A stretch of DNA of 64,000 nucleotides from contig OX442314.1 in NCBI GenBank assembly GCA_949358305.1, forward strand, positions 8,432,001-8,496,000, written 5' to 3'. Shown in pieces: positions 14,938-58,350 of this stretch (positions are counted from its first letter, which is position 1; each line of letters begins with the position of its first letter). The notes beneath the pieces were generated by a model. That model was given only the letters and a program-made list of their open reading frames with translations. It made no database searches and was not told where the DNA came from. The position numbers and the translations under genes were made by a program. This DNA is from Strigamia acuminata (Eukaryota).

Positions 14938-15061
14938 TGTTGGAACAATACTTTATAAAATCAACAATGTATTTTGGTAACTATGTATGAAACGTGTGTT
15001 ATTAAAAATTCAAGATGAATGTATGAATATATGAAAGCTCCATTGCATATCTGACTCTTCA
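14938..15061 (+). repeat. copia 5' LTR
   Basis: TGTTGGAAC...GACTCTTCA; one mismatch seen versus the 3' LTR. Confidence 0.95.
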
Positions 15062-15063
15062 TG

Positions 15064-15077
15064 GGTTATGAGCCCAG
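15064..15077 (+). promoter_or_regulatory. Primer-binding site, half-tRNA-iMet type
   Basis: GGTTATGAGCCCAG just after the LTR, one mismatch to the Drosophila copia-type PBS GGTTATGGGCCCAG. Confidence 0.8.
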
Positions 15078-15274
15078 ACACAAATTTATTATGTGAAATA
15101 TGGACTGTTTTTTGGCTGAACAATTGCATATTGTGAAGAAAGGTTGGAAATCTGAAGTTTTAATGCAGTTTTAAATGTTCCATGAGAATTAGGCCCAGAA
15201 TTGCCTGAGTGATAAGCCTGTGCAACATTAAGCCCTGGACTGATTAGTTGATTTTAAGTGCTATTTCTGAGGAA

Positions 15275-18200: not shown

Positions 18201-19360
18201 TGGAGCAACCTCAAGGCTTTATTCAACCTGGACGAGAAAACGATGTTTGGCTCCTAAATAAGGCAGTTTATGGTTTACCTCAGGCAGGCCGCACTTGGCA
18301 TGAAGCCCTGAACAAGGTACTTGCACAAGCGGGATTTAAGAAGTTGGTAGTTGATCCATGCGTTCATCTGTGGAAAAATGGTACCGACATTATAATAATG
18401 GGCACTTATGTCGACGATTTGATGCCGGCAACTAACGCCACACGAATGCTCGATCAGATAATGGGGAAAGTGATGAAGCAAGTTAATCTGATCGACCTTG
18501 GAGAAGTCACAGAGATTTTGAGCATCAGGATTAGGCGACAGACCCACCCGTATGCACTTTTGTTGGACCAATCCAAGTATATATTTGAGGTCTTGCTTAA
18601 ATTCAACATGATGAATGCAAAGACAAGTAGAGCACCCATGGACCCATCCCAGAAACTGGAGGACCCTAATTATCCGCTCGGATCACCATTAATTAACGAG
18701 CCCTATCGAGAATTAATTGGCTCTTTATCCTACTTGGCTCAAGCTACTCGACCAGATATCGCTTATGCGGTATCCTATCTATCGCAGTAGTTGCAGAATC
18801 CGCATGACGCTCACTGGACAGCAGCAAAGAAGATCCTTCGCTATTTAAAAGGAACGGCTGATTTGTCATTAATTTATTCTCAGGGATTTGGATTATTGCG
18901 AGGATATGCCGATGCATCTTGGAACAGTGCCTCGGTTGATGCAAAGAGCTATGCAGGATTTATCACCATGCTGGGAAATTCAACCATCACTTGGCAATCA
19001 AAGAAGCAAAAGCTAATTGCCTTATCAACATGTGAATCGGAATTTGTAGCAATGGTAGAGTTAGCGAAAGAACTGAAATGGATAACATCATTGCTGGAAC
19101 AGCTTGAGATGACCAAATTAATTCAAAGACCGATTCAAATCTTTTCTGATAATCAAGCCGCCATCGCCCTCACTAAAAACCCCCAGTACCATGGGCGCAC
19201 AAAACACTTTCACAGGAGAGTGTTATTTTTACGTGAGGATGTTCAAGATGGAACTTATGATATCAACTATATGTCTACAGAAGAGATGCCTGCAGATATT
19301 ATGACTAAGGCAACAGGTGGTTTGAAATTGATCACCACAAAGGATTTTATTAATTTGTGA
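15275..19360 (+). pseudogene. copia Gag-Pol polyprotein with an in-frame TAG at 18788-18790
   Basis: CCHC knuckle CWNCGIPGHRQVDC, protease WYLDSGATSHM, integrase WHRRLAH..CEEC/HVDLCGP, RT YVDD, RNase H GYADASW and SDNQAAI; the frame continues after the TAG. Confidence 0.92.
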
Positions 19361-19394
19361 CTATGTGATTCACCGTTACGATGAAGGGCGAGAA

Positions 19395-19518
19395 TGTTGG
19401 AACAATACTTTATAAAATCAACAATATATTTTGGTAACTATGTATGAAACGTGTGTTATTAAAAATTCAAGATGAATGTATGAATATATGAAAGCTCCAT
19501 TGCATATCTGACTCTTCA
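19395..19518 (+). repeat. copia 3' LTR
   Basis: Direct repeat of 14938-15061, followed by TSD ATATT. Confidence 0.95.
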
Positions 19519-20610
19519 ATATTGGTCCTTGAAACCCTTAATTTAATGTTGTGGACCGATACACATACAGGAAACCATCCCCAAGCCATCCCAATAGTAA
19601 AATGGCTTGGGGATGGTTTCCTGTATGTGTATCGGTCCACAACATTAAATTAAAAGTTTCAAGGACCAATATACTTATAAAAAAGTGTTGGAGGATTGTT
19701 ATGCTTCCATTTTGAGATGATAAACTGCCTTTGACATGGATATTTCAGCAGGAAAATGATTCTAAACATAAAGTCAAGTCAATTGCTCAGTTTTCCTAAC
19801 CCATCACATTTAGGTTTTGACTTTTCACATACAAAATTTTGGTTATCCAACAAAATATTGTAAAGTATTGTTCAAATAAACAATGATTTTCTGAAGAAAC
19901 CGGTTTTTTGTGTGATTTTTTGGATGTGGTGCTAAGCTTTTTCTGCCGGCCCAACTCACTTGAGGCAGTTAGCGTGGTGGCCCAATACACTTGTGCCAAG
20001 TAGCACAAATTCAACTGGCCATAACTTTTGGCCCATTTAAGTTAACATTTTATTTTATTTTTTAAAATAAAGCCCAATGTTTGTTCTACAAGTTGCATTT
20101 ATTTATTTTGATTAAAAACTTTTTTTTGAGTTTGAAATTTACGATTTTCTTTTTTGCAACATCAAAAAATACAAGCGGCCCAATACACATGGGTGCGGGT
20201 TGTAGTATGCCACTACGTATACCTATAAATATAATTATAAAGTAATTATAACCGAAACCGCAATTTAAAACTTTATGGTAATTAACTTGTTTAAACAGTC
20301 GCGGATATGTTTAAAAACTTCTATCTCAATGCGCACATCTAAATAATAATACAGGTTAGTTGGGGACATATTGCATGGCACAAAAATATTTGAAAACAAA
20401 TTACCAAGAAATTTATTTATTTTTTACAATTACTTGTAGTTACTGGTAGTGTTCATATATCAAACGTTTATAAAGTTTGCATAATTTTTCTCATCAAATT
20501 GGAATTGGATCCTCGATCTTCTTCACTTCTATAAAGTGAAACACATTATTCAAAAGTAATTTACAAAAAAAAAGAATCTTCTCCTCAATATAACGAACAT
20601 ACATTAGAAT

Positions 20611-21319: not shown

Positions 21320-21645
21320 TTAGCAAGGGTTAAGACATGCGCACTGGCCAGAGCGACAGTAACCTATTGGAAAATCCTTTTCGGTGCACAAGGGGTTACA
21401 TGTGAAGTTCCTATGACACGGGTGCAAGCCACCTACAGGAACAGGACGACCCCCTACCCAGCAATCGCGAGCTAATAAGTAATGGCGGTGATGATGTTGA
21501 TGATGATGAACGTGCTTTGCTAATAAAAATTGGAAATCTTTTTTCAAAGACAAAATATTAAACCAAAACTATAATTTTCTTGTTCAGAATAAACCTTACC
21601 AAAGCAAAACACAAGGCAGAAAAGCAAGGTGATTAGATATTTCAT
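21320..21645 (-). CDS. His-rich defensin-like peptide 5 (8 Cys)
   Basis: Exon1 21645-21600 MKYLITLLFCLVFCF; exon2 21519-21320 AKHVHHHQHHHRHYLLARDCWVGGRPVPVGGLHPCHRNFTCNPLCTEKDFPIGYCRSGQCACLNPC*. Confidence 0.9.
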
Positions 21646-28456: not shown

Positions 28457-29241
28457 TGCAAAATAAAATTAAAAATGTGCAAAATAAAATTAAAAATGTG
28501 CAAAATAAAATTAAAAATGTGCAAAATAAAATTAAAAATGTGCAAAATAAAATTAAAAATGTGCAAAATAAAATTAAAAATGTGCAAAATAAAATTAAAA
28601 ATGTGCAAAATAAAATTAAAAATGTGCAAAATAAAATTAAAAATGTGCAAAATAAAATTAAAAATGTGCAAAATAAAATTAAAAATGTGCAAAATAAAAT
28701 TAAAAATGTGCAAAATAAAATTAAAAATGTGCAAAATAAAATTAAAAATGTGCAAAATAAAATTAAAAATGTGCAAAATAAAATTAAAAATGTGCAAAAT
28801 AAAATTAAAAATGTGCAAAATAAAATTAAAAATGTGCAAAATAAAATTAAAAATGTGCAAAATAAAATTAAAAATGTGCAAAATAAAATTAAAAATGTGC
28901 AAAATAAAATTAAAAATGTGCAAAATAAAATTAAAAATGTGCAAAATAAAATTAAAAATGTGCAAAATAAAATTAAAAATGTGCAAAATAAAATTAAAAA
29001 TGTGCAAAATAAAATTAAAAATGTGCAAAATAAAATTAAAAATGTGCAAAATAAAATTAAAAATGTGCAAAATAAAATTAAAAATGTGCAAAATAAAATT
29101 AAAAATGTGCAAAATAAAATTAAAAATGTGCAAAATAAAATTAAAAATGTGCAAAATAAAATTAAAAATGTGCAAAATAAAATTAAAAATGTGCAAAATA
29201 AAATTAAAAATGTGCAAAATAAAATTAAAAATGTGCAAAAT
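28457..29241. repeat. 21-bp AT-rich satellite (AAAATAAAATTAAAAATGTGC)n, left part, ~37 units
   Basis: Homogeneous array that continues in register after the gypsy element. Confidence 0.95.
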
Positions 29242-30372
29242 TGTCACGGCCCGTGTTTCCTACGTGTACAGTTTACGCATTGTTAACCCGTGTTTGTTCC
29301 TATTAAACCTAATTTGCGATTCTCCTACCTTTGTTGTTTTGTTTATGTTTGATTCGTGAGTTTTCCTCATTTTCCTTCTATCTTATCTCTTACTCTCTCC
29401 TAACTTTCTCTTCATTCTCTCACTTTTCTCTTATCTACTCCTAGTTTTTCTTCTTTAGTTTATGATTTCGATGCAAGTCTATTTGCATATCTATTCTGGT
29501 CAGTACGCGTCGGCGTTAGTCATACACTTAGTATGCACCGACTGTACTGATTGGCTCTTGACTCTTCCGTGATTGGTCAAGCTTGGTTGAGTCCAAGTTT
29601 ACCTCTCACCCTATTTTTCCTCTTTTTCTTCAGTTGATCTCAGTATCCCGAACGCGTAGGTGCTCCTTTGGAGCCGGTGCTCATGGCTGAGGTTTAACTC
29701 CGAAGCTCACTTGTAGCTTTGCATTCGCCCTGGAATTCTGCAACACGGTTTCAGGCTTTCATTTCATTTCGCGTGTTAACTCACGGTTTTACACCACTCG
29801 TTCACCATTTGTTTTCCTGCTCCTTTTTGTTCATGTTTTATCGCCGTGACGCGTCATCCAAGGCCAAACAGGATTTGTTGGCCATAAGTTCGAAGTTTGT
29901 GCCGTTTATTTCGCGTGCGCGTGCATTTAGCTTAGTTTAGCCGCCTGCCATTTGGGCTTTAGCTTTAATTAAGCATTAAGTCAGGTTTAGAGTTAAGTTT
30001 AGGGCCCGTGCGTTGTATAAGCACGAGTAAATTGCCCATCCTCGTTCAGACTCGACAGTTTGGGGTTGCTTATGAGCCACTACGAGACGTGCATTCGTTT
30101 GCCTTCGTGTGAAAACACGATTGTTGGCGGGTCACGCGTTGGGTTTTGGTTCAGACGCGACTACCGGACATTCTGTCCCCGAGTTTTACAGCTCGGGATA
30201 CCCGGCCACAAATAAATATTAGTGTGGTGCACAGTATCTGAGAGTGTGTTAGCTGCCACTTCCTGCGCACATTCGATTTACGACAGGTACGAAACTACCA
30301 GGGTGTGTGAATTTACTGTTTCGCGGCGTCTTTCAAACGCTTCTAAACCACCTAGACTCGCGATCCATCACA
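29242..30372 (+). repeat. gypsy 5' LTR
   Basis: Direct repeat of 41586-42716; only two substitutions noticed. Confidence 0.95.
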
Positions 30373-30374
30373 CT

Positions 30375-30392
30375 TGGTGCCGAAACCCGGGA
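30375..30392 (+). promoter_or_regulatory. Primer-binding site, tRNA-Phe
   Basis: TGGTGCCGAAACCCGGGA is complementary to the 3' end of metazoan tRNA-Phe(GAA). Confidence 0.85.
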
Positions 30393-30548
30393 ATATCCCG
30401 TAGCTTTTCGATTGCTAGCCGTATAAACTGTTTCCAGTGGGCTAGTAATCATTATTCGGAAAACAAAGGTCGAGTGGTATCGTTACTCGCCTTTTTTAGA
30501 GTGGATCATCCATTTGAGTTTTGCTGCGAAATTGCTTGAGTTGACGCA

Positions 30549-32660
30549 ATGGCAGAGGGAGGGCATCCTAAAGAGGATAACTCCAAGAGTGTGTGGCCTA
30601 GCTGGATGCGTAGAGTCGGGGAGCGCTTGTGTGATGAAACTCCACGGCGTCCCCTTGATGCGCGTCCTCCGAGAACCCGCTCAGAGTATGGCTTGCCCGT
30701 GGCAAGAGGCGGTGGGCCGCCGTACCTCCTGCGACCACACGGGGATGTCACACGAGTAAAGGTAGAGGATAAATCCACTTCAACGGATAGTACCTACTGC
30801 CCGGACACTACTCCGTCCACGCGTGAGTCTCGTGTCGATGTGTCTGCTTCGGATCTTTTAACGCCCGTGCAACCAAATCCTTCGGCGCCACCTCAACAAA
30901 GGAGTAGTCCTGAGGATAACGTCGAGGAGGGGGAAGAAGAGGCTGGTCAACGGCCTCCAGAATGGCTGCCGTATTTGCAAAATGCGGAATTGGCCATGAA
31001 TGAGCGTATGGTCCGAGCATTAAACCAGTTTGGTCAGCATGTTGACTACCGACTGGGAAATTATAGAGATGAGACTCTTGTGGGGGTGAGACAAGTGGTT
31101 AGGGCCGAAATCGTGGCATTAGCTGTACAGCCCGAGGAGGAGGTAATTCCACCAGCTCAGCAAAGACCTCATAACTCTTTGCCTGGTGATGGACCTCGTT
31201 CTGACGGTCAGAGGGAACCTGGGGGAAGTGTTCAGTCTTCACGCATTCTGACGCCTAGCGAGTTGAACAGGCAAGGAATTGCAGTAGTAGGAAGGTTACA
31301 AGGGGATGTAAATCCTCGTTTACCTTCAAATGAGAGACCATCGGACGTGACCGCTCGCGCGGGGTCTCGAATGGGTACGCCCTCACAGTGTAACAGTGAG
31401 GTGATGAGGAGTATTATACGCTCAAAGTCGACAGCTGTTAGCTTGCCGGATACAGCAAGTGTTGATCGCGCAGCAGCTGCGCGCGGGGATTCGGTAAATA
31501 CGCGTTTGCAACGGGCGCGAGACGCCCAAGCCGCAGCGGTAACGCCGACGCCCCGGCAGCGGCCGCAGACGCGATATGATCAATATGACTTGTCGCACGT
31601 GAGGTCGGAACATGTGCCGATATTTGATGAGGATGATCAATCCTATAATGCGGTCGAAAGATTCCTAGCAAAATTGCGCGCCCACTATATCATGACGCGC
31701 ATTCCGGATGAAGCGTATATTGACTTGTTCATTCCTTTGGCGCTGTGTGGGAAGCCCTTAAATTGGTACTTGCACTTACGCCATAAACCAAAAACATGGG
31801 ATGAATTTGTTATGCGTTTCCGGAAACGTTATTCCCTCAAGGAGGCCGAAGCAACGGTCCTCCTGACGGATGCCTGGCAGGAAGTAGGGGATGATACGGC
31901 CGAATTTCTGTGTGAGATCAGTCGTTACCTCGAAATGATAGGTATTCGGGGGGATAGGCAACAATGGAATATGGCGAAACATCGCCTCCAACCGCAGATA
32001 ACGGATGCAATGACTCGGTACGGAGTCCGCTTCATGTCGCAGGCCATAGAGATGGGGCAGGAGGCTGACAGCAAATTGGCGTTGCGTTCTCTTCAGCAGT
32101 ATAAGTTCGATGAGCGCGGAGTGAGAAGAGGTCCGGTGCCTCGACCTCAATCCAAGGACAAGGATAAGCAAGCTGTTAAGGCAACCAAAAAGGTGGTAGA
32201 GCCTGCCAAAACAAAGGCGGCGGAAAAGCCTCCGCCTGGTCGCTTCCAGTTTGACAAAAGGAAATTGGTTGCGTTGGCTGAAATGTTTGGGGCTACGAGT
32301 GAGGACCTGCAGAGTGTTGCTGGGCAGTCCGTTGTTAGTGTTGCACCTTCGAGAGTGCCAGAGCCGCAAATAAACGCGTCTGTAAAAGTCTCGGAGAATA
32401 AGCCTACTCCGGCTGTGGGGCCGGCACAATGTGGACATTCTGCCCATACCTTCGCCAATACGGCCAATCCCCCAACGACACCGTTGCCACCCGGAGCTGA
32501 GTGGGTGCGCAATCGGAAGGACAGATGGTACATGCGTGATATTGAAAAACGCATCGCATTATGTCCTCACTGCTTTAAGCCCTGGCAGTTTCCGGGAAAC
32601 GACCAGGGTCCACTGTCCAAACCATCCAACGGAAAGGCAGCGGACCCGAAACCCAAATAA
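30549..32660 (+). CDS. gag: Gag (703 aa)
   Basis: Position after the PBS; retrotransposon-gag-like core LCGKPLNWY..PKTWDEFVMRFRKRY; only a partial knuckle CPHC at the C-terminus. Confidence 0.85.
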   Translation: MAEGGHPKEDNSKSVWPSWMRRVGERLCDETPRRPLDARPPRTRSEYGLPVARGGGPPYLLRPHGDVTRVKVEDKSTSTDSTYCPDTTPSTRESRVDVSASDLLTPVQPNPSAPPQQRSSPEDNVEEGEEEAGQRPPEWLPYLQNAELAMNERMVRALNQFGQHVDYRLGNYRDETLVGVRQVVRAEIVALAVQPEEEVIPPAQQRPHNSLPGDGPRSDGQREPGGSVQSSRILTPSELNRQGIAVVGRLQGDVNPRLPSNERPSDVTARAGSRMGTPSQCNSEVMRSIIRSKSTAVSLPDTASVDRAAAARGDSVNTRLQRARDAQAAAVTPTPRQRPQTRYDQYDLSHVRSEHVPIFDEDDQSYNAVERFLAKLRAHYIMTRIPDEAYIDLFIPLALCGKPLNWYLHLRHKPKTWDEFVMRFRKRYSLKEAEATVLLTDAWQEVGDDTAEFLCEISRYLEMIGIRGDRQQWNMAKHRLQPQITDAMTRYGVRFMSQAIEMGQEADSKLALRSLQQYKFDERGVRRGPVPRPQSKDKDKQAVKATKKVVEPAKTKAAEKPPPGRFQFDKRKLVALAEMFGATSEDLQSVAGQSVVSVAPSRVPEPQINASVKVSENKPTPAVGPAQCGHSAHTFANTANPPTTPLPPGAEWVRNRKDRWYMRDIEKRIALCPHCFKPWQFPGNDQGPLSKPSNGKAADPKPK

Positions 32661-32703
32661 GTCGGACGTTGGAAGCTTTAGATAGCATAAGCGGTTGGAT
32701 GGT
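32594..32703 (+). promoter_or_regulatory. -1 programmed ribosomal frameshift signal
   Basis: G_GGA_AAC in the gag frame; the -1 frame is open into pol; downstream stem GGGTCCACTGTC/GGCAGCGGACCC; loop ACCATCCAAC complementary to GTTGGATGGT (32694-32703). Confidence 0.8.
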
Positions 32704-35700
32704 ACCCCCTGCGTTGCAGAAGACCAGTACCACCGCGTTAGCGGCTTCTAAGCCGAAAATGACAAATTTCATAATGTTGTCACCACCCGAATTTTTGGCT
32801 TCCAAAGAGCCGAAATTGATAATCGGGTTGAAGGACCGTTGTCGGCGAGACGCGGCCTTTGTTAAAATCGCCTGGATCAATATCGAGTTCATTGCAATGA
32901 TGGACAGCGGTGCACAGACGTGCATAATGACCATGGCATTGTATGAGAAACTCGCAAAAGAGATAGGCATAGAAATGGTGAAACTGGACGAAACCATCCG
33001 GACAGCCGACAATCATATTACCAAAGTGGTTGGCTGTGCACAACTAGCCGTCCGTGCTCCTACGGCGGTAGTTTGCTTTACTTGCCTCATCATAGAGGAG
33101 GGGTCTCAAGAGCTCCTCTTGGGGCTAGATTTCTGTAAGGCAGTTGGTCTGTGTACCGACCACGCCAATGAATACTGGTTCCTCTTAGGGGATGGCACGC
33201 GGCATCCCTTCCTCACAGAAGAGCAAGCTAGGGCATCTGATCCAGTGATCTTATTCCCTTTAACAAAGGAACAACCTTCCCTCCCGGAGGGAATTGCGGT
33301 TAAGGGGCCCCCTCTTTACAACCTTCCGGCTTTGCGAAATCCGCTGGTCCCCAAGCCAGAGGAAACGGCGGTGCCCGTCAAGCTTGTCGGCCAAAAGGAG
33401 CGGGAACTGACCCCCGAGATTCCTGCAAAGGAGGAGGAGGCAGAGGAGAAGCCTGTGGTCGCTACAAAACCACCAATTAGTGAAGCTAACTGTGTCTTGC
33501 TAAATAAGCGTAATTTCGAAGTGGAGTTATTCGAGCCCCCACATGAGGACAATCCTTGCATTGTCAAAGTGGTTGTTGCTCGAAGAGGGCAGGACGCTCA
33601 AAAATGGACATTCATATGGTCACCTAAGAGACGGGAAAAAACCGCACGAAGGAACATCGTGCGAGTTACGCGTAAACTTGGGAGAAAGGCCATGTGTTTG
33701 AGTCAGATGCGTCGAGCCATTAAGTTGCGTAAAGCAAGAGTTAAAGCGGTGGCTAAACGAACGTTGGTTGAGACTGCAGATTCTCCGAGTGGAGAGAGAA
33801 ATGTCGTCGGCAACGCGGAGATCTCTTCTGCTTGTCAAAAGACGGAAGGTACTCCAAGACAGCATGATGTTAATTTCGTCCAATACATCCCAAACAGAGA
33901 TCCTACCAACCTCGCTTGGGTGTATGATCAGCTGTGTAATCAGTTGGAGCCGAAACGCATTAACCACTTAATGGATGCGTTGAAACCAGTTGCTCACATC
34001 TTTCGTGAGGAATTGGGGCTCTGTAATAACACACAGTTTGAAGTGAATCTGAAGCCTGATTTCCGACCTATCCATGTCCCGGTACGTCCGGTGAATCCGG
34101 CAAAAAGGGAAATAATCGATGCCTATATCGACCAAAAGTTGGCGCAAGGAGTAATCAAGCGCTCCAAAAGCGACTGCGCCGTGGCGCCCGTAGTTGTCCC
34201 CAAAAAGGACGGACGCTGGCGCTGCGCAATGGATTTTAGGCCGATCAACTCCCAAACTTTGCCTGATGTTTACCCCCTCCCAGATATCGACAACATCTTT
34301 GCATATCTGGGCGGGGCAAAATGGTTTTCCATCATCGACGGAAGGGAAGCGTTCCACCAAATAGGAGTCCGACCTGGAGATGAACGATATCTCGCATTTA
34401 TCACCCACAGGGGACTCTTTGAGTATACGCGTATGCCCTTCGGTCCGATCAATGGCCCTGCCACCTTACAAAGGGCCATGAATTTGACTCTAGCTGAGCA
34501 TCTCTACAAGTTTGTCTTTGTGTACATCGACGACATAATCGTGTTTAGTAAGACCTTCGAAGAGCATGTGACCCACTTGCAAAAAGTGCTCACTTTGCTC
34601 GACCAAGCGGGGTTTACAATGAACGCAGGAAAAACGGAGTTGTGCAAGACAAGTCTTGAGGTGCTCGGACATATTGTCGAGGAGGGACTTATCCGTCCTA
34701 ACCCAAAGAAGACCGACGCGATCAGCAAGTACCCGGCCCCCACTAACTTGAAGGAGTTACAACGCTTCAAGGGTATGATCGGGTACTACTCGTCGTTCTT
34801 CCCCGGATATTCCAAGACCTGTGAAGTCTTTCGAGTTCTTATGCGTAAGAATGCGCCATGGAACTGGACGGCGGCGCACCAGGCAGCTTTCGAGTATCTC
34901 AAAAATCAAGTGTCGCTATCTACTTTGCACAGGAACTTCCCGGACTGGAGTAAACCTTACATCTTACAAACCGATGCGAGTTATTCTGGTCTAGGGGCTG
35001 CGTTGATGCAGATCAACAATGACGGCGTACGCGTCCCAATTGCCTTTGCATCACGGGCCTTAAACAGTGCAGAGAAAAACTATACGGCGACGGAAATTGA
35101 GTGCCTGGCCGCCGTCTGGGCCGTTAAACGCTTTAGAGCATACCTCGAGTTAATGGATTTCTATCTTGAGAGTGATCACAAGTCTTTAACATGGCTTTGG
35201 GCCCAGCGCGAGCCAAAGGGCCGACTGGCGAGATGGATTCTTTCGCTGTCGGAATACCGATTCACATTCCTCCACTGTAGTGGTACGAAGAATCGGGTCG
35301 CCGATGCGTTGAGTCGGGCGCCGGTTGACCCGCCGATCGAGCTGGATGACGAAGACTGTCCAGCGTTGGATGACACATATTACTGTGCGTACTTCGATGA
35401 TTTCAACGACTGGCCAGTACTCAAAATGGAGGAGTTAGATGAGGTGGCTCATTGGAAATCATCCAACTGCAAAATCGTTAGAGCGGTAACAATGCGTAAA
35501 CAGAAACGTGCGTTCCTGGCGAGATTGAACGCCTTGTCGGCTACGGCAGTGGATGTATGTCCGGTGGAGGACGAGCCCCCTCCAAAAAGAGGACGGGGAC
35601 GTCCACGGAAAAATCCCATTGCAAAGGGGCCGACTCAGGCGGGACCCTTGCCGGGAGCACAGCCTACTCTGCCAATGTCGGACGAAGAATCTGTGGCGGT

Positions 35701-37702
35701 GTCTTTGCCTAAGGAAGACGGGCCTGTAAAAAGGAAAAGAGGTCGTCCGCGGAAAACTCCGGCCAGCGGGGACATGACGCAGCCTAAATCCTTACCCGTA
35801 ACGCGTCCTATTCCACCAACTTCGGAAGAAGAGTCAGGTGCAGTTTCTTTGCCAATTGACGTTCCTGAGAAGAGAAAACGGGGGCGACCAAAAAAGGTTG
35901 TGGAGAAGCGACCGGTCGGAAGGCCGAAAAAGATTCCCATCATCTTCGATCGCTCTACGGGCTCGGAAGCCAGTGAAATGTCGTTGGACGGTGAGGAGCT
36001 GCCGGGAGACACGGACTCCGAAGAGTTTCAAATTCCTGTGATTCCACGGGACTTGTCACCAAGGACCCAACCACGGCGAGATTTGGTTTCACCAACACCC
36101 TCTATCGATGCGGAGTTGCTTGACCACTCTGAGCACTCGTCTGACGAGAGTTTCTACTCACTTCCGGCGGATCATCCGACAATTGAGATTCTCCCAACAC
36201 AGAAGGCCGTTAAAGAAGCCCAACTAGCCGATGAATGGTCTAAGGGACTTATATTATATCTCAATTCAGGGTCTCTGCCGCCAGGTGAGATGGAGGCTGC
36301 AGAACTTAAGAAACGAGCAGTGGACATGGCGTTACACCGTGGTCTGCTCTGCAAGTTTCCACCAACTAAGATCGGTCAACAAGCTCCTACGCGTCGTATT
36401 TACCTCCCTCAATCCCTTCGTTACAAGTATTTTCATTGCTTACATTTCCCACCAACCTCTGGCCATCTCGGGATCGAGAAAACACTAATGCGTCTAAAAA
36501 CACGTGTGTTTTGGCCGGGGATGAAAAAAGATGTAGCAAATTGGATTAAAGTTTGTGAACCTTGTCAAAGGGCGAAGGTCGAGCGGAGGCTACCGTATGG
36601 CGAGATGGAGACCGCGAAACCGAGACGGTTGTTTCGGACCATTTACGTCGACTACTTCGGGAAAAAGTTGAAGTCCACTGGCGGACACTGCTACGCGTTC
36701 GTAATGGTGGATGCAGCCAGTCGCTGGGTGGACGTTAGACTCACCGAAAAAGCAGACGTTTCTACAACAGTGAAACAACTTAAAAAGTTCACTTATAGAT
36801 GGGCTTATCCAAAAACTATAATAAGTGATAACGCCCCAACCTTTCGCTCTGCCAAGTTCCAGGCACAGTGCGCCGAAATGGGAATGGTAAATAAATATAT
36901 TTCCGCCTACCATCCGCAGGGGAACTTGGCGGAAAGACTCAACCAATCACTTAAAACGTGCATCCTCGCGTATATAGACGAACATACGCGTTGGGATAAG
37001 CACATTGGTTCTTTCATTTTAGCAATTAATACTGCTTACCAGACCTCACTCAAATTTTCACCTTACATGATGGTCACAGGACAAGAAGCACGTTTTCCAG
37101 GAGATGTCGACTCTGACACTGACGACGGAGAACCCTTGCCGCCAGATGAATCGCGTTTTCTTCATCGATACTTATTACGCATCCGTGAGGAGGCGAGGAA
37201 AAATCTGGATGCCGCACATCTACGCCATAAGCGTTGGTATGACCGAAAAAGGCGGCCCCATATGTTTAAACCTGGGGACTGGGTCACCGTCAAAAGTCGT
37301 GTTTTGTCATCAACTGATAAACAAATAAGTTCGGGTTTCCAACACCGGACTGAAGGCGTTTATATGATTCATCGACTCCTGGGACCAAATACCGTGCTCT
37401 TGATGGACCAGGACGGGAAGATTTCCCAACCTATTCATGTGTCGGATCTTCGCCATTGGTACCGGGCTGAAGAGCCGGAAATTGAAGTTTCCGATGTCTC
37501 CAGTGTGGCTAGTGGGGCAGAGGATCACGAGGAATTGGATTCTGAGTTGGAAATTGATGAGGACATTCCCCAAGAAGACTTGGATGATATTTCTGCACGC
37601 GTTGTTAAATTCCAAACTGAAGTCCGTAGTATTTGCGTCGACTTCGAAGAGAGGAATAAACGCGTCAAAACATCGAAATTAGCGGCAGAAATTATCTCCT
37701 AA
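32594..37702 (+). CDS. pol: Pol (protease, RT, RNase H, AT-hook insert, integrase), expressed as a Gag-Pol fusion
   Basis: MMDSGAQ, RT YPLP/RMPFG/YIDD, RNase H LQTDAS..EIECLA..DHKSL..VADALSR, integrase H..GHLG..CEPC, YVD, ISDN, AER; frame uninterrupted. Confidence 0.95.
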   Translation, partial: GKRPGSTVQTIQRKGSGPETQISRTLEALDSISGWMVPPALQKTSTTALAASKPKMTNFIMLSPPEFLASKEPKLIIGLKDRCRRDAAFVKIAWINIEFIAMMDSGAQTCIMTMALYEKLAKEIGIEMVKLDETIRTADNHITKVVGCAQLAVRAPTAVVCFTCLIIEEGSQELLLGLDFCKAVGLCTDHANEYWFLLGDGTRHPFLTEEQARASDPVILFPLTKEQPSLPEGIAVKGPPLYNLPALRNPLVPKPEETAVPVKLVGQKERELTPEIPAKEEEAEEKPVVATKPPISEANCVLLNKRNFEVELFEPPHEDNPCIVKVVVARRGQDAQKWTFIWSPKRREKTARRNIVRVTRKLGRKAMCLSQMRRAIKLRKARVKAVAKRTLVETADSPSGERNVVGNAEISSACQKTEGTPRQHDVNFVQYIPNRDPTNLAWVYDQLCNQLEPKRINHLMDALKPVAHIFREELGLCNNTQFEVNLKPDFRPIHVPVRPVNPAKREIIDAYIDQKLAQGVIKRSKSDCAVAPVVVPKKDGRWRCAMDFRPINSQTLPDVYPLPDIDNIFAYLGGAKWFSIIDGREAFHQIGVRPGDERYLAFITHRGLFEYTRMPFGPINGPATLQRAMNLTLAEHLYKFVFVYIDDIIVFSKTFEEHVTHLQKVLTLLDQAGFTMNAGKTELCKTSLEVLGHIVEEGLIRPNPKKTDAISKYPAPTNLKELQRFKGMIGYYSSFFPGYSKTCEVFRVLMRKNAPWNWTAAHQAAFEYLKNQVSLSTLHRNFPDWSKPYILQTDASYSGLGAALMQINNDGVRVPIAFASRALNSAEKNYTATEIECLAAVWAVKRFRAYLELMDFYLESDHKSLTWLWAQREPKGRLARWILSLSEYRFTFLHCSGTKNRVADALSRAPVDPPIELDDEDCPALDDTYYCAYFDDFNDWPVLKMEELDEVAHWKSSNCKIVRAVTMRKQKRAFLARLNALSATAVDVCPVEDEPPPKRGRGRPRKNPIAKGPTQAGPLPGAQPTLPMSDEESVAVSLPKEDGPVKRKRGRPRKTPASGDMTQPKSLPVTRPIPPTSEEESGAVSLPIDVPEKRKRGRPKKVVEKRPVGRPKKIPIIFDRSTGSEASEMSLDGEELPGDTDSEEFQIPVIPRDLSPRTQPRRDLVSPTPSIDAELLDHSEHSSDESFYSLPADHPTIEILPTQKAVKEAQLADEWSKGLILYLNSGSLPPGEMEAAELKKRAVDMALHRGLLCKFPPTKIGQQAPTRRIYLPQSLRYKYFHCLHFPPTSGHLGIEKTLMRLKTRVFWPGMKKDVANWIKVCEPCQRAKVERRLPYGEMETAKPRRLFRTIYVDYFGKKLKSTGGHCYAFVMVDAASRWVDVRLTEKADVSTTVKQLKKFTYRWAYPKTIISDNAPTFRSAKFQAQCAEMGMVNKYISAYHPQGNLAERLNQSLKTCILAYIDEHTRWDKHIGSFILAINTAYQTSLKFSPYMMVTGQEARFPGDVDSDTDDGEPLPPDESRFLHRYLLRIREEARKNLDAAHLRHKRWYDRKRRPHMFKPGDWVTVKSRVLSSTDKQISSGFQHRTEGVYMIHRLLGPNTVLLMDQDGKISQPIHVSDLRHWYRAEEPEIEVSDVSSVASGAEDHEELDSELEIDEDIPQEDLDDISARVVKFQTEVRSICVDFEERNKRVKTSKLAAEIIS

Positions 37703-39009
37703 TCGTGTCAATGTTTTTGTTTATTCTTTGACAATTTTTAGTGTATTTTGTTTATTTTCTCCGGTTATTGCACCTTTTCATGTTTATTCTGCGCATGTCG
37801 GGACTCAAGTTCGCTATTTGTGATTGCTAGTAAGCAATTTGCTCAAGTGGTGGCGCTGAACGTCATTGGTCAGCTGACCGATGAGTCAGTCTTCACACAT
37901 GTGTGTGACCGCCATTGTTTTTCCACTTGTTGAGCAACGCGTATGCCTCGTGTAAGCGGGCGGAGATTGAAAACGCGTCGAGGCGATACACTTGAGCGCC
38001 TGACTGTCGAGGATTTGAGCCTGTTAAGTGTGCTGGTAGCCGTGAGTAACTTTATTTTGTTTTCGTGGACAATTATGAACCATTTTGAGAGTTTGAGTGG
38101 CGAACGCCGATGCTCGTGCCGTGCCGACAATAATGTAATTATTACGCGTTGTCATGTTAGGATTAATGAGTAATTTTATTGTTCAAACTATTTCACCTGA
38201 CTTTTACGCGTTTTCTACGTGTTTTTGGTGTCAAAACGGCCCGAGTTAGGATTCTTCGTCACTCTCGCTTTTGAAAATCCAACATGGCCGAATTTTCCCC
38301 CTGCTTAGGAATGTGTGAGGGTCACGTGGTCGGTTTCTAACCTCAACCCGGGCTCGAGCGTCCATCTTTGTTGGACTTAGAAAATTTTCTTCGTGTTTAG
38401 TCATTCACATGTGCTCACGCGTGCCTGTTCACTTGTATTTAAAATGCCGAGGCGATTGGAGATAATTTATTGCGCTCTCTTTGTATTCTTGTTTGCGTTT
38501 TATTTAGAGGAAATTTGCTACTATTTAGTGATTTATACTTTGCATATTTTGATATTTATGTACAAGTTACTGTTCGCGTAATGCCAATTCATGTCTTATG
38601 CGTTTGTTTTTGGGTGTATTACCTTATAGTTAGCGGAATCTATTTGGAGTGTAGACGAGAGTCATTTGTATGCTTTTGTGTATTTTTCGAACTGTTAAAT
38701 CTGGCAGTATACGCGTTCTTTCTGTATTTAATTCGACTTAATCGCGCCATGGCTTGGTGGATAAGTTATGAGTTGTAGATATGTTAGTGAATGTTGAAGC
38801 ACACGCGTTTTTTGTGATCATTATTTATATTTATGCGTTACATGCGTATGTGAGCTTCCTTGTGAAAACTAGCGTTATTATTCTGAGCACTGTGTATTTT
38901 TTGTTCATTCGCCATGTTTGGATGTGGTTTGCCCACGAGTGAATATTTTATTTGATTTGTAAATTTATTGTTGCGACTTTTTCTTCACCATTCAGTTTGA
39001 GATCTTATC

Positions 39010-40970
39010 ATGGCGGACCAGGACAGCAGTTCCGAGGGGGACGAATCACTCGATTTTACATCGGATGAGGAGCTTTATGAGGATGAAGGACTAGGAAGTA
39101 TGGCCGGAGCGGAACAATGCTCAAGTGCGGGACAACGCCGACCTGCTTCGCGTCGTGGCGTTTACCGCCCTCCATACCCGGTACCCGATTTGTACGCGAA
39201 AGGGGATTTCCAAACTTCGAGATATGCCCCCTGTGCTCCGGCTGGGGCCATCTGGAAAATATGTCGAGAGAATGCAACGCGTGTTTGGGGAAAGGCGTAC
39301 TCCGCCGTGGCAAATTTAAGATTTGGATGAGGAGGCTCCAAGCAATGGCCTTGCGAAAAAAGCGCTGGGATAAGCGGGATTTATCAAAGTATAAGTGGCC
39401 GACGGTTTTCCAAGTCATACGAGGAGACATTAGTGCGACTACGCGTTTTGTGCGAAGGCACGAGACGTTTTGGCGGAACACTATTGCGGAGGCCACGGCG
39501 GCCGGAATACAGCCTTTAAATTGGCAGTACCCTCCGCTCAATTCCATCATGCCGGTCCCGGGTGCCTGTGCTCCCCCTCTGCCGGCCCTCTTGAGAAGTT
39601 TTCCGACTGGAACGAGTACAATAAATGTGATTCGACACTCAAGGGAAAGTGATGTTCCCACCATTACGCGTCCACTTCATTCTGCCGCGTTGCGTCAGCG
39701 GGAAGAGCCACAGACCGTAGTTAGGGCTGGAATGACGCGTGAGGCCGAGGAGCAAGAGCGCGTCCGCCTCATCGAGGAGAGGAACGACCATCTCGTGGAC
39801 GAAATCGCCCAACTGCGAAAACTTCATTTGGATGCGAAAGCGCGGGATCAAGCCGTTCCGTCGAATTCAACGGTGGTTGTCACCGAGCGAGATCGCCCCA
39901 ATTTACCAGCGATCGAGGGGGCGCCGATCTGCGAAGTGGAGGCATTGGCCATCGTTCCGGTTCGGGCGAGAGACCCGAGAACCATACGTCCACGACCGGC
40001 GTTGGAGTTTCACCAGACCCAGAGTGAGGACGAAGAAACCACTGAGTGGGGAGAAGGAGCACACGAACAACTAGCCATTGAGGGGCCGCCGGCTGCAGAA
40101 AGGAGCCGAAGAGGAGTTGGAGCTCTCATCCCCCGAAAGAGTGAGAAAACAGTGATGCACGGCTTCACTCAACGTGCAGGGGAGTCGGCGGAGGATTTCC
40201 GAAAACGATGCTTTGCGACGCGTGCGCGGCGGCAGGCACGAGCCCAGAAGGAGGCTGAGGATCTTCGGGGAAAGGAGTTAGTCCTTTTGGAGAAATTGGA
40301 TGCGATCGATTGGTTCCACCCGGAGGACAACCCGTACCTTGGTAGTATTACTGGATCGATCAAAGACCGAGCGATGTCCCGGCGGCTGGGTTGGTCGACG
40401 GATTTGTCGGGCCCTCAATCACAGTTGCCCATCCGACACCCGGATTTGGTGGCGACGGGTCCGCGTCGACGATGTTTTGGGGACGCGTCACCTTTCAATA
40501 TGCTTGCGATCCCTCGGGCCACCGACTGGGAGACAGCGATACGACACGTGGCAGCGAGGCAGCGGTCCGATGGAAATCGGATGCGATTCCTGGACTACCA
40601 CGATTTCCCCACTACATTCTGGGCGCGGAAGGGATTTAACGAAATTTTCCCCTTCGGCACCCTCGACTGGCAGTGTCCAACGCGTCGACGAGCGACGTCG
40701 TATATTCAGGCAGACCCGGATTTGTGGCGACAGTTTTTCTACGCCATCGCCCGCACAGAGCACGGATGGCCTGAATCGCAGGCCCATGCCATTTTGGAGC
40801 TTCGAAATGGACAAATCCTCTTCCTAGAAAGCCTCATCGCAGATGTACTTACGCGTTACCACCCGCGTACGGAGGAGCAGATGGAGGACGTGTTGGTTTA
40901 TCGCGTCGTTGGACTCGTGGAGGAGCTTCTTCAGCTGATGTTCCCGGACGGTGCCAGTGACAGTGACTAA
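39010..40970 (+). CDS. ORF3 accessory protein of unknown function (617 aa from ATG 39117; ~653 aa if a 1-nt frameshift near 39120 joins the ATG at 39010)
   Basis: Long GC-rich ORF in the env position, preceded by a polypyrimidine/CAG acceptor (38978-38995); two CxxCxGxG motifs and a coiled-coil-like stretch; no evident signal peptide or TM segment. Confidence 0.8.
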
Positions 40971-41585
40971 TGTGAGGAAGTACCATTGCGAACTTGGTGA
41001 ACGGTTTCTCGAACGTGACTTTTGTTTTGTGCGCAACTTTTAAGTTCAAATGGATAAGTCTCCATTTGGACGCGTGTTTAATTTTATTGTTTGTGTTTAG
41101 CATTTCCAGTGATATTTGTGAACATTATATTTTACCCGACTGTGATATATAATTTATTTTGTTTGTTTTCTAGTGTTTTCCGCGCCTCTTGTACCTATCC
41201 GCGTGCCCGGGAGACGCCTCATTCCTCCTCCGAGAATCATGTGCCGGTGGAGATGACCCCCTAAATTTTCCTCTCGGTCGTGTGGATGGGTGCAATGAGC
41301 GTAGGAGTTCCAGCAATCAACGATTGCTTGGAAGCGTAAGTTTGTGTTAGTTTTAGCTTTATTTCAAAGTGTCAATTTGCCTTACTGTGATTTGAGTATA
41401 TATTTTAACGCGTCTGACGCGATTGTTTGATTTTGCATTATGTCTTTAGTTACTTTTGATTTATCTTTGATTGTGTTTAATTCGCTAATGTTGCGATTGA
41501 TTATGTTCTTGATTATTTTATTGATTTGATTGTATCGTTTCATTACTTCATCAAACAGAGTAATAAAACTCTGGCTGTGGGGGCG

Positions 41586-42716
41586 TGTCACGGCCCGTGT
41601 TTCCTACGTGTACAGTTTACGCATTGTTAACCCGTGTTTGTTCCTATTAAACCTAATTTGCGATTCTCCTACCTTTGTTGTTTTGTTTATGTTTGATTCG
41701 TGAGTTTTCCTCATTTTCCTTCTATCTTATCTCTTACTCTCTCCTAACTTTCTCTTCATTCTCTCACTTTTCTCTTATCTACTCCTAGTTTTTCTTCTTT
41801 AGTTTATGATTTCGATGCAAGTCTATTTGCATATCTATTCTGGTCAGTACGCGTCGGCGTTAGTCATACACTTAGTATGCACCGACTGTACTGATTGGCT
41901 CTTGACTCTTCCGTGATTGGTCAAGCTTGGTTGAGTCCAAGTTTACCTCTCACCCTATTTTTCCTCTTTTTCTTCAGTTGATCTCAGTATCCCGAACGCG
42001 TAGGTGCTCCTTTGGAGCCGGTGCTCATGGCTGAGGTTTAACTCCGAAGCTCACTTGTAGCTTTGCATTCGCCCTGGAATTCTGCAACACGGTTTCAGGC
42101 TTTCATTTCATTTCGCGTGTTAACTCACGGTTTTACACCACTCGTTCACCATTTGTTTTCCTGCTCCTTTTTGTTCATGTTTTATCGCCGTGACGCGTCA
42201 TCCAAGGCCAAACAGGATTTGTTGGCCATAAGTTCGAAGTTTGTGCCGTTTATTTCGCGTGCGCGTGCATTTAGCTTAGTTTAGCCGCCTGCCATTTGGG
42301 CTTTAGCTTTAATTAAGCATTAAGTCAGGTTTAGAGTTAGGTTTAGGGCCCGTGCGTTGTATAAGCACGAGTAAATTGCCCATCCTCGTTCAGACTCGAC
42401 AGTTTGGGGTTGCTTATGAGCCACTACGAGACGTGCATTCGTTTGCCTTCGTGTGAAAACACGATTGTTGGCGGGTCACGCGTTGGGTTTTGGTTCAGAC
42501 GCGACTACCGGACATTCTGTCCCCGAGTTTTACAGCTCGGGATACCCGGCCACAAATAAATATTAGTGTGGTGCACAGTATCTGAGAGTGTGTTAGCTGC
42601 CACTTCCTGCGCACATTCGATTTACGGCAGGTACGAAACTACCAGGGTGTGTGAATTTACTGTTTCGCGGCGTCTTTCAAACGCTTCTAAACCACCTAGA
42701 CTCGCGATCCATCACA
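41586..42716 (+). repeat. gypsy 3' LTR
   Basis: Direct repeat of the 5' LTR, preceded by G-rich GGCTGTGGGGGCG. Confidence 0.95.
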
Positions 42717-42911
42717 AAATAAAATTAAAAATGTGCAAAATAAAATTAAAAATGTGCAAAATAAAATTAAAAATGTGCAAAATAAAATTAAAAATGTGCA
42801 AAATAAAATTAAAAATGTGCAAAATAAAATTAAAAATGTGCAAAATAAAATTAAAAATGTGCAAAATAAAATTAAAAATGTGCAAAATAAAATTAAAAAT
42901 GTGCAAAATAA
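42717..42911. repeat. 21-bp satellite, right part (~9 units)
   Basis: Same unit as 28457-29241. Confidence 0.95.
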
Positions 42912-43068: not shown

Positions 43069-44587
43069 TACTTAGTAATTACAATTCTTTTTTTTCTATT
43101 TTTTTATTTGTTTATTACTTAAAACTTTTTCCAGACACTAATTTAGTGACTTTACCTGGTGGCTGTTTTTGGCAAAATCCTCAGTTTTCCGAACGGAAAC
43201 ATACGTACACGATAAGTGTCTTAAAAAAAAGCCAAAAATTGTTACGCACATCGTTAAAAAGAGACAAATTGCTGTTTTTTCCCGGAAAAATGGCGATTTA
43301 TGCATTTATTTCTGATTTTCGGATAATATGCATTTTTTGCCAATTTCGGCTTTTTATTTTTAAGTTAAGAAGTACTATAAGCTTACAAATAAACAATTTT
43401 CGACTTTTGTGTTTTCACGTGTAAAAAAAATTAAATTTACGGTAGATTGCAGAATTTAATAAAAAAAAAATTAAATTCATTAACCCCAGTAAGGAAACAG
43501 CAAAACTGTGTGATGATCCCACTGTTGACAAAACAAAAACAGGTGTTTCCTATTCACGGTTCCTTTGTAGTCGTTGTCACCGGCAAATACCAGTCATCGG
43601 GTCTTTCCGCTGAATGCAAGAGTGGATCAAAGAAAGGAAGAGGAAAGAAGAAAAAAAAACAATCCAAGAGTGACAAAAAGATCTTGTCCAACACAGATGC
43701 CACCAGTTCTTCCTGTGAGCTCAAACTTCTTCATTTCTCACAAGGTCATTGAACCATCCCCACAATAGTAATGGAATGGTCGTACAACTTGATCTAGTAA
43801 ATCCACTGGAAGCTGTTTGGTCTTCAAACAAACACTGCTAACAAAACTTCACATCTGCTACATAACCCACAATTGCATCACATTTTATCCAAAAACTTCC
43901 TCCTTTCATTGATTCAAGTGAAACTAATAAAGATTACAACGGAGAGGAGCATTTACACCGATGCAAAGCTTTGTGCTCACATACTGCAAATTTAGTATTC
44001 AATTTTGCTTTCAAAGCATCAATGCATGCTCTAATGTAAAGCTTATCCATCGACAGTTGCTGCCATTGGTGGTTTTAGCGAGGCCCTAGGCAAATGTGTA
44101 GGTGCAAGCCGTTGAACAGACATTAAGGAACGTAAGTTGAGACCTGGATCCAGTGGATCGTAATAAGATGCATGTTTCGTTGACGTTCCTTGATGCTGGT
44201 AAAATGTGATTACAGATTTTCGTTTAAAACAAAGCTTCTTAAAATTTTTCCACTTGCAACCCCTTTTAAGGTGGGAAACACAAGGGAGCGAATAAAATTT
44301 AAAAGCTTGCTTTTACTTGAAAAAGCAGCTAAAAACTCGCCCACTTGAGCGCGGAGGAATAATTATGTTAGAATTTGGGCCAGAAATTTGAGTTTTCTTG
44401 ATATTCTGAAGGTTATTACTAAAATTTGGGTAAATTTATAGAAATTTAGGCCAGTTTCCTACATTTTAGACATCTAAAAGCTTGTTTTCGTTCAATTCTC
44501 ATTGAAAAAATTTTGTACTCATTTCTAACAACATGAAAAATGAAAAACAATTTTGTTTTAATTTTTCTTTTCTTCTCGTCTTTGCAG

Positions 44588-44819
44588 ATTATTCGAAGAG
44601 CACAACGAACTTCTCAATTTGTTCACCAAATTCAGTGATTTGAAAACTAAAGAGCAGCAGTCAGAAAGTCTAGAGTTACAGGAACATGCAACGCTTGTCA
44701 TGACGACTTTGGACGAAAGTATCCAGGCACTGGAAAACGTGGACGCATTCACCGCCTACTTGCATCAAGTAGGCCGGTCCCACACAAAAGTGCCCGGATA
44801 CAAAAAGGAATACTTCTGG
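44588..44819 (+). CDS. Globin X-like (arthropod neuroglobin-like) central exon
   Basis: TTTGCAG|A-LFEEHNELLNLFTKFSDLKTKEQQSESLELQEHATLVMTTLDESIQALENVDAFTAYLHQVGRSHTKVPGYKKEYFW|GTAAG; CD1 Phe, distal and proximal His; intron phases fit canonical B12.2 and G7.0. Confidence 0.92.
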
Positions 44820-56725: not shown

Positions 56726-56864
56726 CTGTTAATTTTACATCCAACAGGTGGCGTTATTTTTCAGATATTTAGTACAGCATGTGTTGCTTTAACGTCCAAC
56801 ATATGGCGCTGGCGCTGTTTTTCTAAAAAGCATGTTTTTACCTGTCACAGGTGTGACATCCATA

Positions 56865-58350
56865 CAACTCCTTGCCAAAAAAATGGAATAATCAATTTTT
56901 GACAATGCCTTTTCATTTTATAATTGTAATTTGAAGACGCCCATACAAAATTATAAATCGTGCTTTTAGTATATAAAACTACAATTATTAAGCTACCATT
57001 TGGTCAAAACAGAACAATAAAATCACTTCTGGTTGCTATTTTATTCAACTTTAGACACGGACAAAAAAATGGAATATTTTTTTCCTGTGCCAAAAAAATA
57101 GAATAATCCAATAAAGTAATTGAATTATGCAAATTAGTATACGCTTTACGTTAGATGACGCCATACGTACATCGCCCACACACATCTAAATATGTCTAAG
57201 CATGTCTGGCCAGTGTGAAGTTCTAATTCATGACAAACATGGGTGGCAAAAAAGACTTGTCACCTGCGACGAGAAAAGTAATTCTAAAGTTCCATCAAGA
57301 CAATAAAACGCAAGCAGAAATCGCCAAGGCTGTTAACTGTAGCCAATCTACAGTGTCAAAAGTTCTCAAACAAGTCAATTCAAATCACGGACTCCACAAC
57401 AACCGTGAAAATTGTGATAGAAAGCGCTCAACAACTGCCAGAAATGATCGAAAACTGTGCACAATTGTGAGGAAAAACAGATTTAAATCGACTAGACAAT
57501 ATCATAATATGTGGAAACAGGAAAATGTAGCTACTTCCCATCGCACAACTGTCCGTCGACTTCATGAACTGAACTTTAAAAGTTGTGCACTAAACGTAAG
57601 CCACTGTTAACACAGAAGCAACGACAAAAACGAGTTAAGTGGATGTCGGAGGATTGGGCAAACGTAATTTTCAGTTTTGTATTTTATATGGTGACCAGGG
57701 TGTCACGGTTTGGAGAACAAAGGATGAGGCATATCATCGAACAACTTTAAAGCAATGTGTGAAATTTCAGGGTAGTGTGATGATATGGGGTTGTATGTGC
57801 ACACGAGGTGTTGGGCACATGACAACCACCCGGGGGACTGTTAATTCTGAAGAATATCAAGAACTACTCGAATATTTCCTAATTCCATCCATTGAGGACC
57901 TTTTCTCCGATGATGATGATGCTGATGTCATTTTTCAGCTAGATTTGGCCCCTGCCCATGCTTCAACATCAACTAAAGAATGGTTTGAAACACACAACTT
58001 CAATGTACTTTCAGGCTGTCATTAAGGCAAGAGGATACCTGACCAAATATTAAGTTCTTTTCATGTGTATTTGATTATGTTTCAATAAAAATAATTACTT
58101 TATTAGATTATTCTATTTTTTTGGCACAGGAAAAAAAATATTCCATTTTTTTGTCCGTGTTTAAAGTTGAATAAAATAGCAACCAGAAGTGATTTTATTG
58201 TTCTGTTTCGACCAAATGGTAGCTTAATAATTGTAGTTTTATATACTAAAAGCACGATTCATAATTTTGTATGGGCGTCTTCAAATTACAATTATAAAAT
58301 GAAAAGGCATTGTCAAAAATTGATTATTCCATTTTTTTGGCAAGGAGTTG
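56865..58350 (+). mobile_element. Tc1-family transposon with long (~255-bp) IR/DR-type TIRs
   Basis: TA-CAACTCCTTGCCAAAAAAATGGAATA ... TATTCCATTTTTTTGGCAAGGAGTTG-TA; AAAAAAATGGAATA is repeated within each TIR. Confidence 0.9.
57230..58053 (+). pseudogene. Tc1 transposase, frameshifted and internally deleted
   Basis: HTH QAEIAKAVNCSQSTVSKVL, TVRRRL-like segment, GSVMIWGC, degenerate FQQDNAPAH (FQLDLAPAH); the first Asp region and SPDLNPIE are missing. Confidence 0.85.

Follow-up and report, generated by a model that had tools for sequence, protein, structure and literature searches.

The window analysed here is the whole 64,000-nucleotide stretch of Strigamia acuminata contig OX442314.1 (positions 8,432,001 to 8,496,000). 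On its plus strand, at 29242-42716, lies a 13.5-kb Ty3/Gypsy long terminal repeat (LTR) retrotransposon. The element is bounded by two LTRs of 1131 bp each, which have TG...CA ends and are flanked by a 4-bp target-site duplication, as expected for an LTR retrotransposon, and the domain order of its pol, protease-reverse transcriptase-RNase H-integrase (PR-RT-RH-IN), is that of Ty3/Gypsy. The copy is young, as its LTRs differ at only 2 of 1131 bases, and it is inserted in an AT-rich 21-bp minisatellite. Besides gag and pol, it carries a third open reading frame, ORF3, and its whole length is studded with the palindrome ACGCGT, which is the subject of this report.

Exact counting yielded 38 copies of ACGCGT in the window, 37 within the element and one, at 56391, in the other 50.5 kb. 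The first-pass annotation had estimated about 37 by eye, and its distribution of four sites per LTR, about 12 in gag-pol (three in gag and nine in pol by exact count), seven in the spacer, eight in ORF3 and two in the 3' untranslated region (UTR) was also reproduced. When the duplicated LTR was dropped, 33 sites remained in 12,344 bp, whereas an order-1 Markov model predicted 3.4. In a null model in which synonymous codons were shuffled within each ORF and dinucleotides were kept elsewhere (300 shuffles), 4.2 sites were expected and the maximum was 12, giving a z-score of 14.3 for ACGCGT, whereas the highest z-score reached by any hexamer within the null was 6.0. The ACGCGT excess is about eightfold over chance, coding DNA included, and the comparison with this null bears out the earlier argument that protein constraint is not the cause.

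For the individual genes, codon shuffling (2000 shuffles) gave 1.27 sites (maximum 6) versus 9 observed in pol, and 0.83 (maximum 4) versus 8 observed in ORF3; gag by itself was not significant (3 observed versus 1.07, maximum 5). In addition, 13 sites were observed versus 1.0 expected in the non-coding DNA of the element, and 1 versus 3.2 expected in the window outside it. The three element proteins permit ACGCGT at 43 places, of which 20 are filled (8 of 10 in ORF3), and the coding region of the neighbouring Copia element permits it at 14 places, of which none is filled. The 20 coding sites use all three codon frames (13, 4 and 3), and the examples quoted earlier for the three frames, at 30819, 32374 and 37597, are correct. 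ACGCGT is the sole palindromic hexamer with more than eight copies in the element, over which it is spread entirely, the largest gap being 1294 bp.

The element contains 75 CGCG cores, 33 of which are ACGCGT, and the next commonest pair of flanking bases occurs seven times. With the word masked, the observed/expected (o/e) ratio of CpG is 1.04; CpG content therefore does not explain the ACGCGT excess, and the objection that the excess might follow from CpG or CGCG frequency fails. Among the 18 one-mismatch neighbours tested, only ATGCGT was raised (12 versus 4.7, P = 0.004). Its reverse complement was similarly up (5 versus 2.4, P = 0.08), and the CpG-decay products ACGTGT and ACACGT, together with the other CGCG words, were at background. 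Because the other decay products are at background, ATGCGT seems to be a variant that is tolerated and not a product of decay, and the rise in both orientations fits double-stranded reading. Most of the ATGCGT near-matches lie in gag-pol, the part of the element with fewer perfect sites for its length; as a post-hoc remark, perfect sites and near-matches counted together reach a density of 7.7 per kb in the spacer and 3.3-4.4 per kb in all the other parts.

Around the sites in the element, no flanking consensus beyond the hexamer and no helical phasing (P at least 0.11) were found. The sites also showed no preference for RNA loops (unpaired 0.27 at the sites and 0.31 at 84 control hexamers, P = 0.42), so that the suggested role as an RNA kissing (dimerization) palindrome is not supported. 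The CGCG-box consensus of CAMTA consists of degenerate flanks around CGCG. Such degeneracy was not seen, as CCGCGT (5 versus 3.6), GCGCGT (3 versus 3.8) and ACGTGT (4 versus 3.4) were at background, which speaks against the generic host CGCG-box reader that had also been considered. A dispersed, sequence-specific cis-signal, as had been proposed, is supported, the excess being left unexplained by protein constraint and CpG content. The CpG palindrome is very probably a selected protein-binding code of the element.

Features of the Gypsy element and positions of its ACGCGT sites, in window coordinates
Feature	Position	Strand	Details
Target-site duplication, 4 bp	29238..29241, repeated 42717-42720	+	
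5' LTR	29242..30372	+	1131 bp; ACGCGT at 29505, 29652, 29849, 30134
5' LTR signals	TATA-like word 30016; poly(A) signal 30211	+	
Primer-binding site	30375..30392	+	presumably complementary to a tRNA-Phe 3' end
gag, 703 residues	30549..32660	+	ACGCGT at 30819, 31500, 32374; Retrotrans_gag E 0.003
Heptamer G GGA AAC	32594-32600	+	inside gag; likely -1 frameshift from gag into pol
pol, 1667 residues	32699..37702	+	PR-RT-RH-IN
pol ACGCGT sites	33668, 34427, 35029, 35801, 36389, 36693, 36986, 37597, 37660	+	
AT-hook-like motif cluster	35600..35940	+	between RNase H and integrase; AT_hook E 8.5e-5, three stretches
Non-coding spacer	37703..39009	+	highest site density; three near-matches besides; splice-acceptor-like end (by eye)
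Spacer ACGCGT sites	37937, 37973, 38144, 38206, 38417, 38711, 38803	+	
ORF3 acidic 5' part	39010..39194	+	out of frame with the remaining ORF3 in the window copy
ORF3 main frame	39195..40970	+	annotated from ATG 39117 as 617 residues
ORF3 ACGCGT sites	39277, 39441, 39666, 39735, 40218, 40483, 40680, 40851	+	
3' UTR	40971..41585	+	ACGCGT at 41070, 41408; G-rich polypurine-tract-like end
3' LTR	41586..42716	+	ACGCGT at 41849, 41996, 42193, 42478

From its N-terminus, ORF3 comprises an acidic segment (12 Asp or Glu among the first 30 residues), a proline-rich linker, a C4 zinc ribbon with the pattern CxxCxGxG-x8-CxxCxGxG, a very basic stretch, two long helices predicted to form coiled coils, and a helical C-terminus. 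The ribbon gave a DnaJ-type match below the cut-off (E = 0.0075), its closest likeness being to anti-TRAP/DnaJ-type ribbons, and the basic helix region carries a net charge of +11 over 30 residues. This anatomy suggests a nuclear regulator. An env glycoprotein, as in errantivirus-like Gypsy elements, was ruled out by the absence of a membrane segment (best 19-residue hydropathy 1.39) and of any fusion-protein family in the Pfam scan, in which control env ORFs matched Baculo_F or Monjiviricetes_fusion.

No relatives of ORF3 were found among 7995 candidates of 339-1080 residues, among 1.84 billion representatives at E <= 0.001, or in five bins. The Atlas yielded no usable match for residues 385-617 and merely 0.75-0.76 for residues 27-140, and searches of PDB, PHROGs and Pfam returned only sub-threshold zinc-ribbon or coiled-coil matches. 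Fold searches on poor single-sequence models (pLDDT 39.8 and 37.4) gave nothing at E <= 0.001 (best Z 4.7). A KilA-N/APSES (MBF-type) domain was not among the Pfam scan matches, the single-sequence models being poor. A histone fold in the C-terminus, considered by eye and from weak fold-search rows, was not supported by profile tests (hhalign E = 0.15; -1.3 bits with a 40-sequence H3 profile; end-to-end alignment P of about 0.09).

Public contigs revealed that the element belongs to a large family whose lineages have diverged; of the 2727 contigs that aligned in run X2, 235 were less than 90% alike. Among the matches listed, the ORF3 variants in other copies were synonymous in 22 of 27 and in 32 of 33 cases, which indicates purifying selection on this orphan gene. 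The 617-residue ORF had been taken for the entire ORF3. However, contigs of other copies, from three runs, hold extra sequence at window 39195-39204; upstream of 39195 the listed variants were synonymous in the 39010 frame in 4 of 7 versus 1 of 7 cases, and downstream of 39204 they were synonymous in the long frame in 32 of 33. The gene thus appears to start at the acidic ORF at 39010, and the window copy appears to be broken near 39195-39204.

For the motif itself, the 29849 site is retained in a diverged LTR among the matches listed, one lineage has a new ACGCGT near the LTR end, one lacks the site at 34427, and two have an altered site at 39277. This anecdotal evidence suggests that single sites are gained and lost among relatives. 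The element shows no CpG deficit, in contrast to the Copia element 10 kb away, whose CpG o/e is 0.48 with raised TpG/CpA. That the element has kept its CpG next to a Copia that has lost much of it fits escape from methylation. Any protection of the element could equally be against histone-based silencing.

For comparison, 87 Gypsy-like loci were retrieved by RT alignment, mostly from eukaryotic contigs within bacterial bins, and 79 were used, the others being shorter than 3 kb or without a plus-strand match. No ACGCGT excess was found in these 79 unrelated loci (84 versus 96.8 expected in 605 kb) or in 20 contigs of the bin with the nearest RT relatives (7 versus 12.8). The best pol relatives of the window element are 34-44% identical, and single-sequence DNA scans found no true relative of the element, L001 being a bacterial chance match; no RNA data set was listed as containing it. 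After 40 further regions had been added, the LTR-bounded control set comprised the 39 loci in which both LTRs and a match to RT were present. Only two of these, L049 (5.4) and L082 (3.5), had a corrected dispersed-motif score above 3, the rest reaching at most 2.3, whereas the window element scored 17.8; L072, which is not LTR-bounded, scored 4.9. Scores above 3 were thus seen in two of the three LTR-bounded controls with a non-env extra ORF versus 0 of the 36 without.

L049, L072 and L082 each carry an extra ORF after pol and their own CpG palindrome, namely TTCGAA/CGAATTCG in L049, GTACGTAC in L072 and GTCGAC in L082. The motif excess extends into coding DNA in L049 and in L082, where 11 dispersed GTCGAC were found in coding DNA versus 2.0 (maximum 6 in 200 shuffles). 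For L049 (9252-10496, contig G001:C11) and L072 (5732-6481, contig G001:C22), both from eukaryotic contigs in a bacterial bin, the gene after pol encodes a divergent histone H3 (Pfam Histone, E = 2e-30 and 6e-29, respectively). The RTs of these two loci are 70% identical; the L049 gene, whose long N-terminal part is interrupted by a stop, sits between both LTRs. L082 (3625-20703) represents a 17-kb Gypsy family, seen also as L071 and L074-L077, with a 327-residue extra ORF without known family. A helix-turn-helix (HTH) noted by eye in the extra ORF of the family (L075) lacked Pfam support.

Three further outliers, L015 (GGAACA), L084 and L088, were rejected as dispersed motifs, since they reflect tandem or clustered repeats. 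In the sister loci L048 and L041, whose extra ORFs are large and antisense, CTGAAG is in dispersed excess (26 versus 6.0 and 21 versus 6.8, respectively), which may be a matter of codon usage. In another locus, a Gypsy pol is followed by an ORF that encodes a TatD DNase domain (L069:6941-9367).

Our tentative preference, put at somewhat less than even chances, is that ORF3 is the reader of ACGCGT and acts on expression or silencing. ACGCGT would then be a recognition code on the double-stranded DNA of the element, read by ORF3, that keeps the whole element transcribed. A dimeric protein would read the palindrome, with the zinc ribbon and basic helix of ORF3 contacting the site and the coiled coil serving for pairing, and would tolerate T at the second position. 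The element would be coated through many redundant sites, and activating or anti-silencing host machinery would be recruited by the acidic N-terminus. Since the host DNA around the element seldom contains ACGCGT, other families would be left unaffected, and copies with a broken ORF3, including that of the window, would be served in trans. The first-pass annotation had likened such self-recognition to that of plant VANC proteins; this part of its proposal finds indirect support in three unrelated Gypsy families, in each of which an extra gene accompanies a CpG palindrome peculiar to the family. No homology between the element and VANC/VANDAL was found.

A more general and speculative reading, which we consider doubtful, is that animal Gypsy elements have repeatedly evolved self-recognition, in which a family-specific CpG palindrome, spread over the full length of the element by way of synonymous codons, is paired with an accessory chromatin protein that marks no copies but those of its family and shields them from host silencing. 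In this reading, equally doubtful as a whole, the accessory proteins would be an orphan zinc-ribbon protein here, and H3 variants or another protein in the three unrelated families.

It is rather unlikely that the reader is a transcription factor of the host that strictly prefers ACGCGT, with the sites accumulated along the element to give germline or early-embryo expression and ORF3 serving an unrelated function. ACGCGT is the yeast MCB site and falls within the CGCG-box consensus words; in the LTR, three of the four sites precede the TATA-like word, the density peaks in the spacer before ORF3, and Pfam scans recognized no DNA-binding family in ORF3, all of which would suit such a factor. However, the other CGCG-box variants are at background, neither the Copia nor the host DNA of the window has gathered ACGCGT, and enhancer use needs no sites through 7 kb of gag-pol. 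Moreover, each family in bin G001 has a different word, and a different CpG palindrome per family within one bin would fit element-specific readers better than one host factor. It is improbable that the sites serve to coat unintegrated cDNA with an element protein (ORF3, Gag or integrase), either to assemble a pre-integration complex or to prevent insertion into copies of the same family. The whole-length coverage and strand symmetry fit a double-stranded coat, and the AT-hooks and AT-rich target site suggest active target choice, but the acidic N-terminus and the intact CpG content point to action at the chromatin stage, and integration of ordinary Gypsy elements proceeds without a code of this kind, which was seen in 0 of the 36 LTR-bounded controls that lack a non-env extra ORF.

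An RNA role, in which dispersed sites would act in export, packaging or dimerization, also appears quite improbable, although an accessory RNA-export protein, CERV of Cer1, is known in a Gypsy element (PMC10309623). All the sites lie within the inferred transcript, and the ORF3 zinc ribbon is closest to anti-TRAP/DnaJ-type ribbons, whereas the sites are no more unpaired than the control hexamers, and single-strand reading requires neither a perfect palindrome nor a rise of the near-match in both orientations. Least probable, and unlikely by our estimate, is a neutral mutation or repair bias that creates or protects ACGCGT without function. In bacteria, an enrichment of palindromes has been attributed to methylase-coupled repair, and the loss of single sites in some lineages would agree with neutrality; biased repair should, however, deplete one-step neighbours, whereas ATGCGT is raised and ACGTGT and ACACGT are at background. 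Because CpG is not depleted overall, protection alone cannot yield an eightfold excess. Both the restriction of the excess to this element within the window and the absence of depletion among the mutational neighbours make a neutral bias unlikely.

Several observations weigh against the reading of ACGCGT as a code recognized by ORF3 and against its extension to other families. Statistical support for even spacing of the sites is slight (P = 0.08 for the whole element, 0.04 and 0.008 for separate parts), and 3 other hexamers among 38 tested space as evenly in gag-pol. The putative DNA-binding role of ORF3 rests on weak features, since ORF3 has no detected relative. The CpG contrast is that of one element with one; transposon methylation is low in most of the arthropods studied, while being high in centipedes and mealybugs (PMC7343188), and one springtail genome is described as lacking it (PMC5644144). 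For the controls, the 39 LTR-bounded loci contain near-duplicates, and L049, L072 and L082 all come from one bin (G001). Their RTs are 33-35% identical to the window RT and form no clade with it (FastTree), so that the parallel is one of analogy, not homology. The L072 motif is not raised in coding DNA; L164, from the same bin, has two large extra ORFs yet no motif, and L025, L052, L069 and L079 have large non-env extra ORFs and no strong palindrome.

In the proposed recognition by ORF3, the window element would work like the VANC-VANDAL and TnpA-Spm systems, yet it is a member of neither. VANC proteins and their motifs belong to the VANDAL elements of Arabidopsis, which are plant Mutator DNA transposons, and the motifs are 8-9-bp non-palindromes in tandem in non-coding DNA (PMC5735166). 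An accessory gene with an accumulated short motif is common to both, as are different motifs in related or co-resident families (here in bin G001). In contrast, the present element is an animal LTR retrotransposon and not a Mutator-like DNA transposon. Its sites are 6-bp CpG palindromes that occur singly, their flanks being unrelated, and 20 of the 33 lie in coding DNA. The logic proposed here, that an element-encoded, sequence-specific activator serves cognate copies, resembles that of TnpA of Spm, whereas Spm elements are DNA transposons in which the motifs cluster at the termini, where hypomethylation also occurs, and the reader is an HTH protein; neither 'LTR' nor 'retrotransposon' appears in the main text of that paper (bioRxiv 10.64898/2026.08.24.746577).

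By analogy, the closest animal accessory protein is CERV of C. elegans Cer1, likewise a novel non-env protein of an animal LTR element, although it acts on RNA: it exports genomic RNA, and the abstract of the paper contains no dispersed motif (PMC10309623). Database searches gave no similarity between ORF3 and CERV. Conserved extra ORFs after pol are also known between pol and the 3' LTR of other elements (PMC7264820), and CopiaMBD, an arthropod LTR element, also engages CpG DNA but reads host methylated DNA for targeting rather than its own tag (PMC6673714); the parts covered of these two papers contain no element-wide motif. Nor do those of a meeting report (PMC12859917) and a chromatin survey (bioRxiv 10.1101/2021.11.30.470311) hold a precedent. 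In the literature searched, which left subscription papers and bioRxiv supplements outside, there was no element-wide palindrome in an animal LTR element and no Gypsy-borne H3.

How an element escapes silencing without unsilencing the whole genome has been answered in molecular terms mainly for plant DNA transposons. A hexamer palindrome overlaid on the coding DNA of an animal retrotransposon offers a precise and cheap test, with one protein and one short duplex, and if ORF3 is the reader, it would represent a new sequence-specific DNA-binding family. In addition, a family-specific palindrome excess provides a sequence-only signature by which such systems may be found in any genome.

Elsewhere in the window, the Copia element at 14406-20199 has its coding region at 15248-19360, which contains one in-frame stop at 18790 and is flanked by 535-bp inverted repeats that are 99% alike. 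A Tc1-like transposon at 56862-58353 has 237-bp inverted repeats and an interrupted transposase. On the minus strand, a small cysteine-rich host gene, judged by eye to be defensin-like, occurs in dispersed copies at 7055-7342, 10653-10928, 12880-13119 and 21320-21568. A neuroglobin-like host exon at 44586-44819, by which the host is placed in the arthropods, is 62-71% identical to seven matches, the named ones being from wasp, water flea and firefly.

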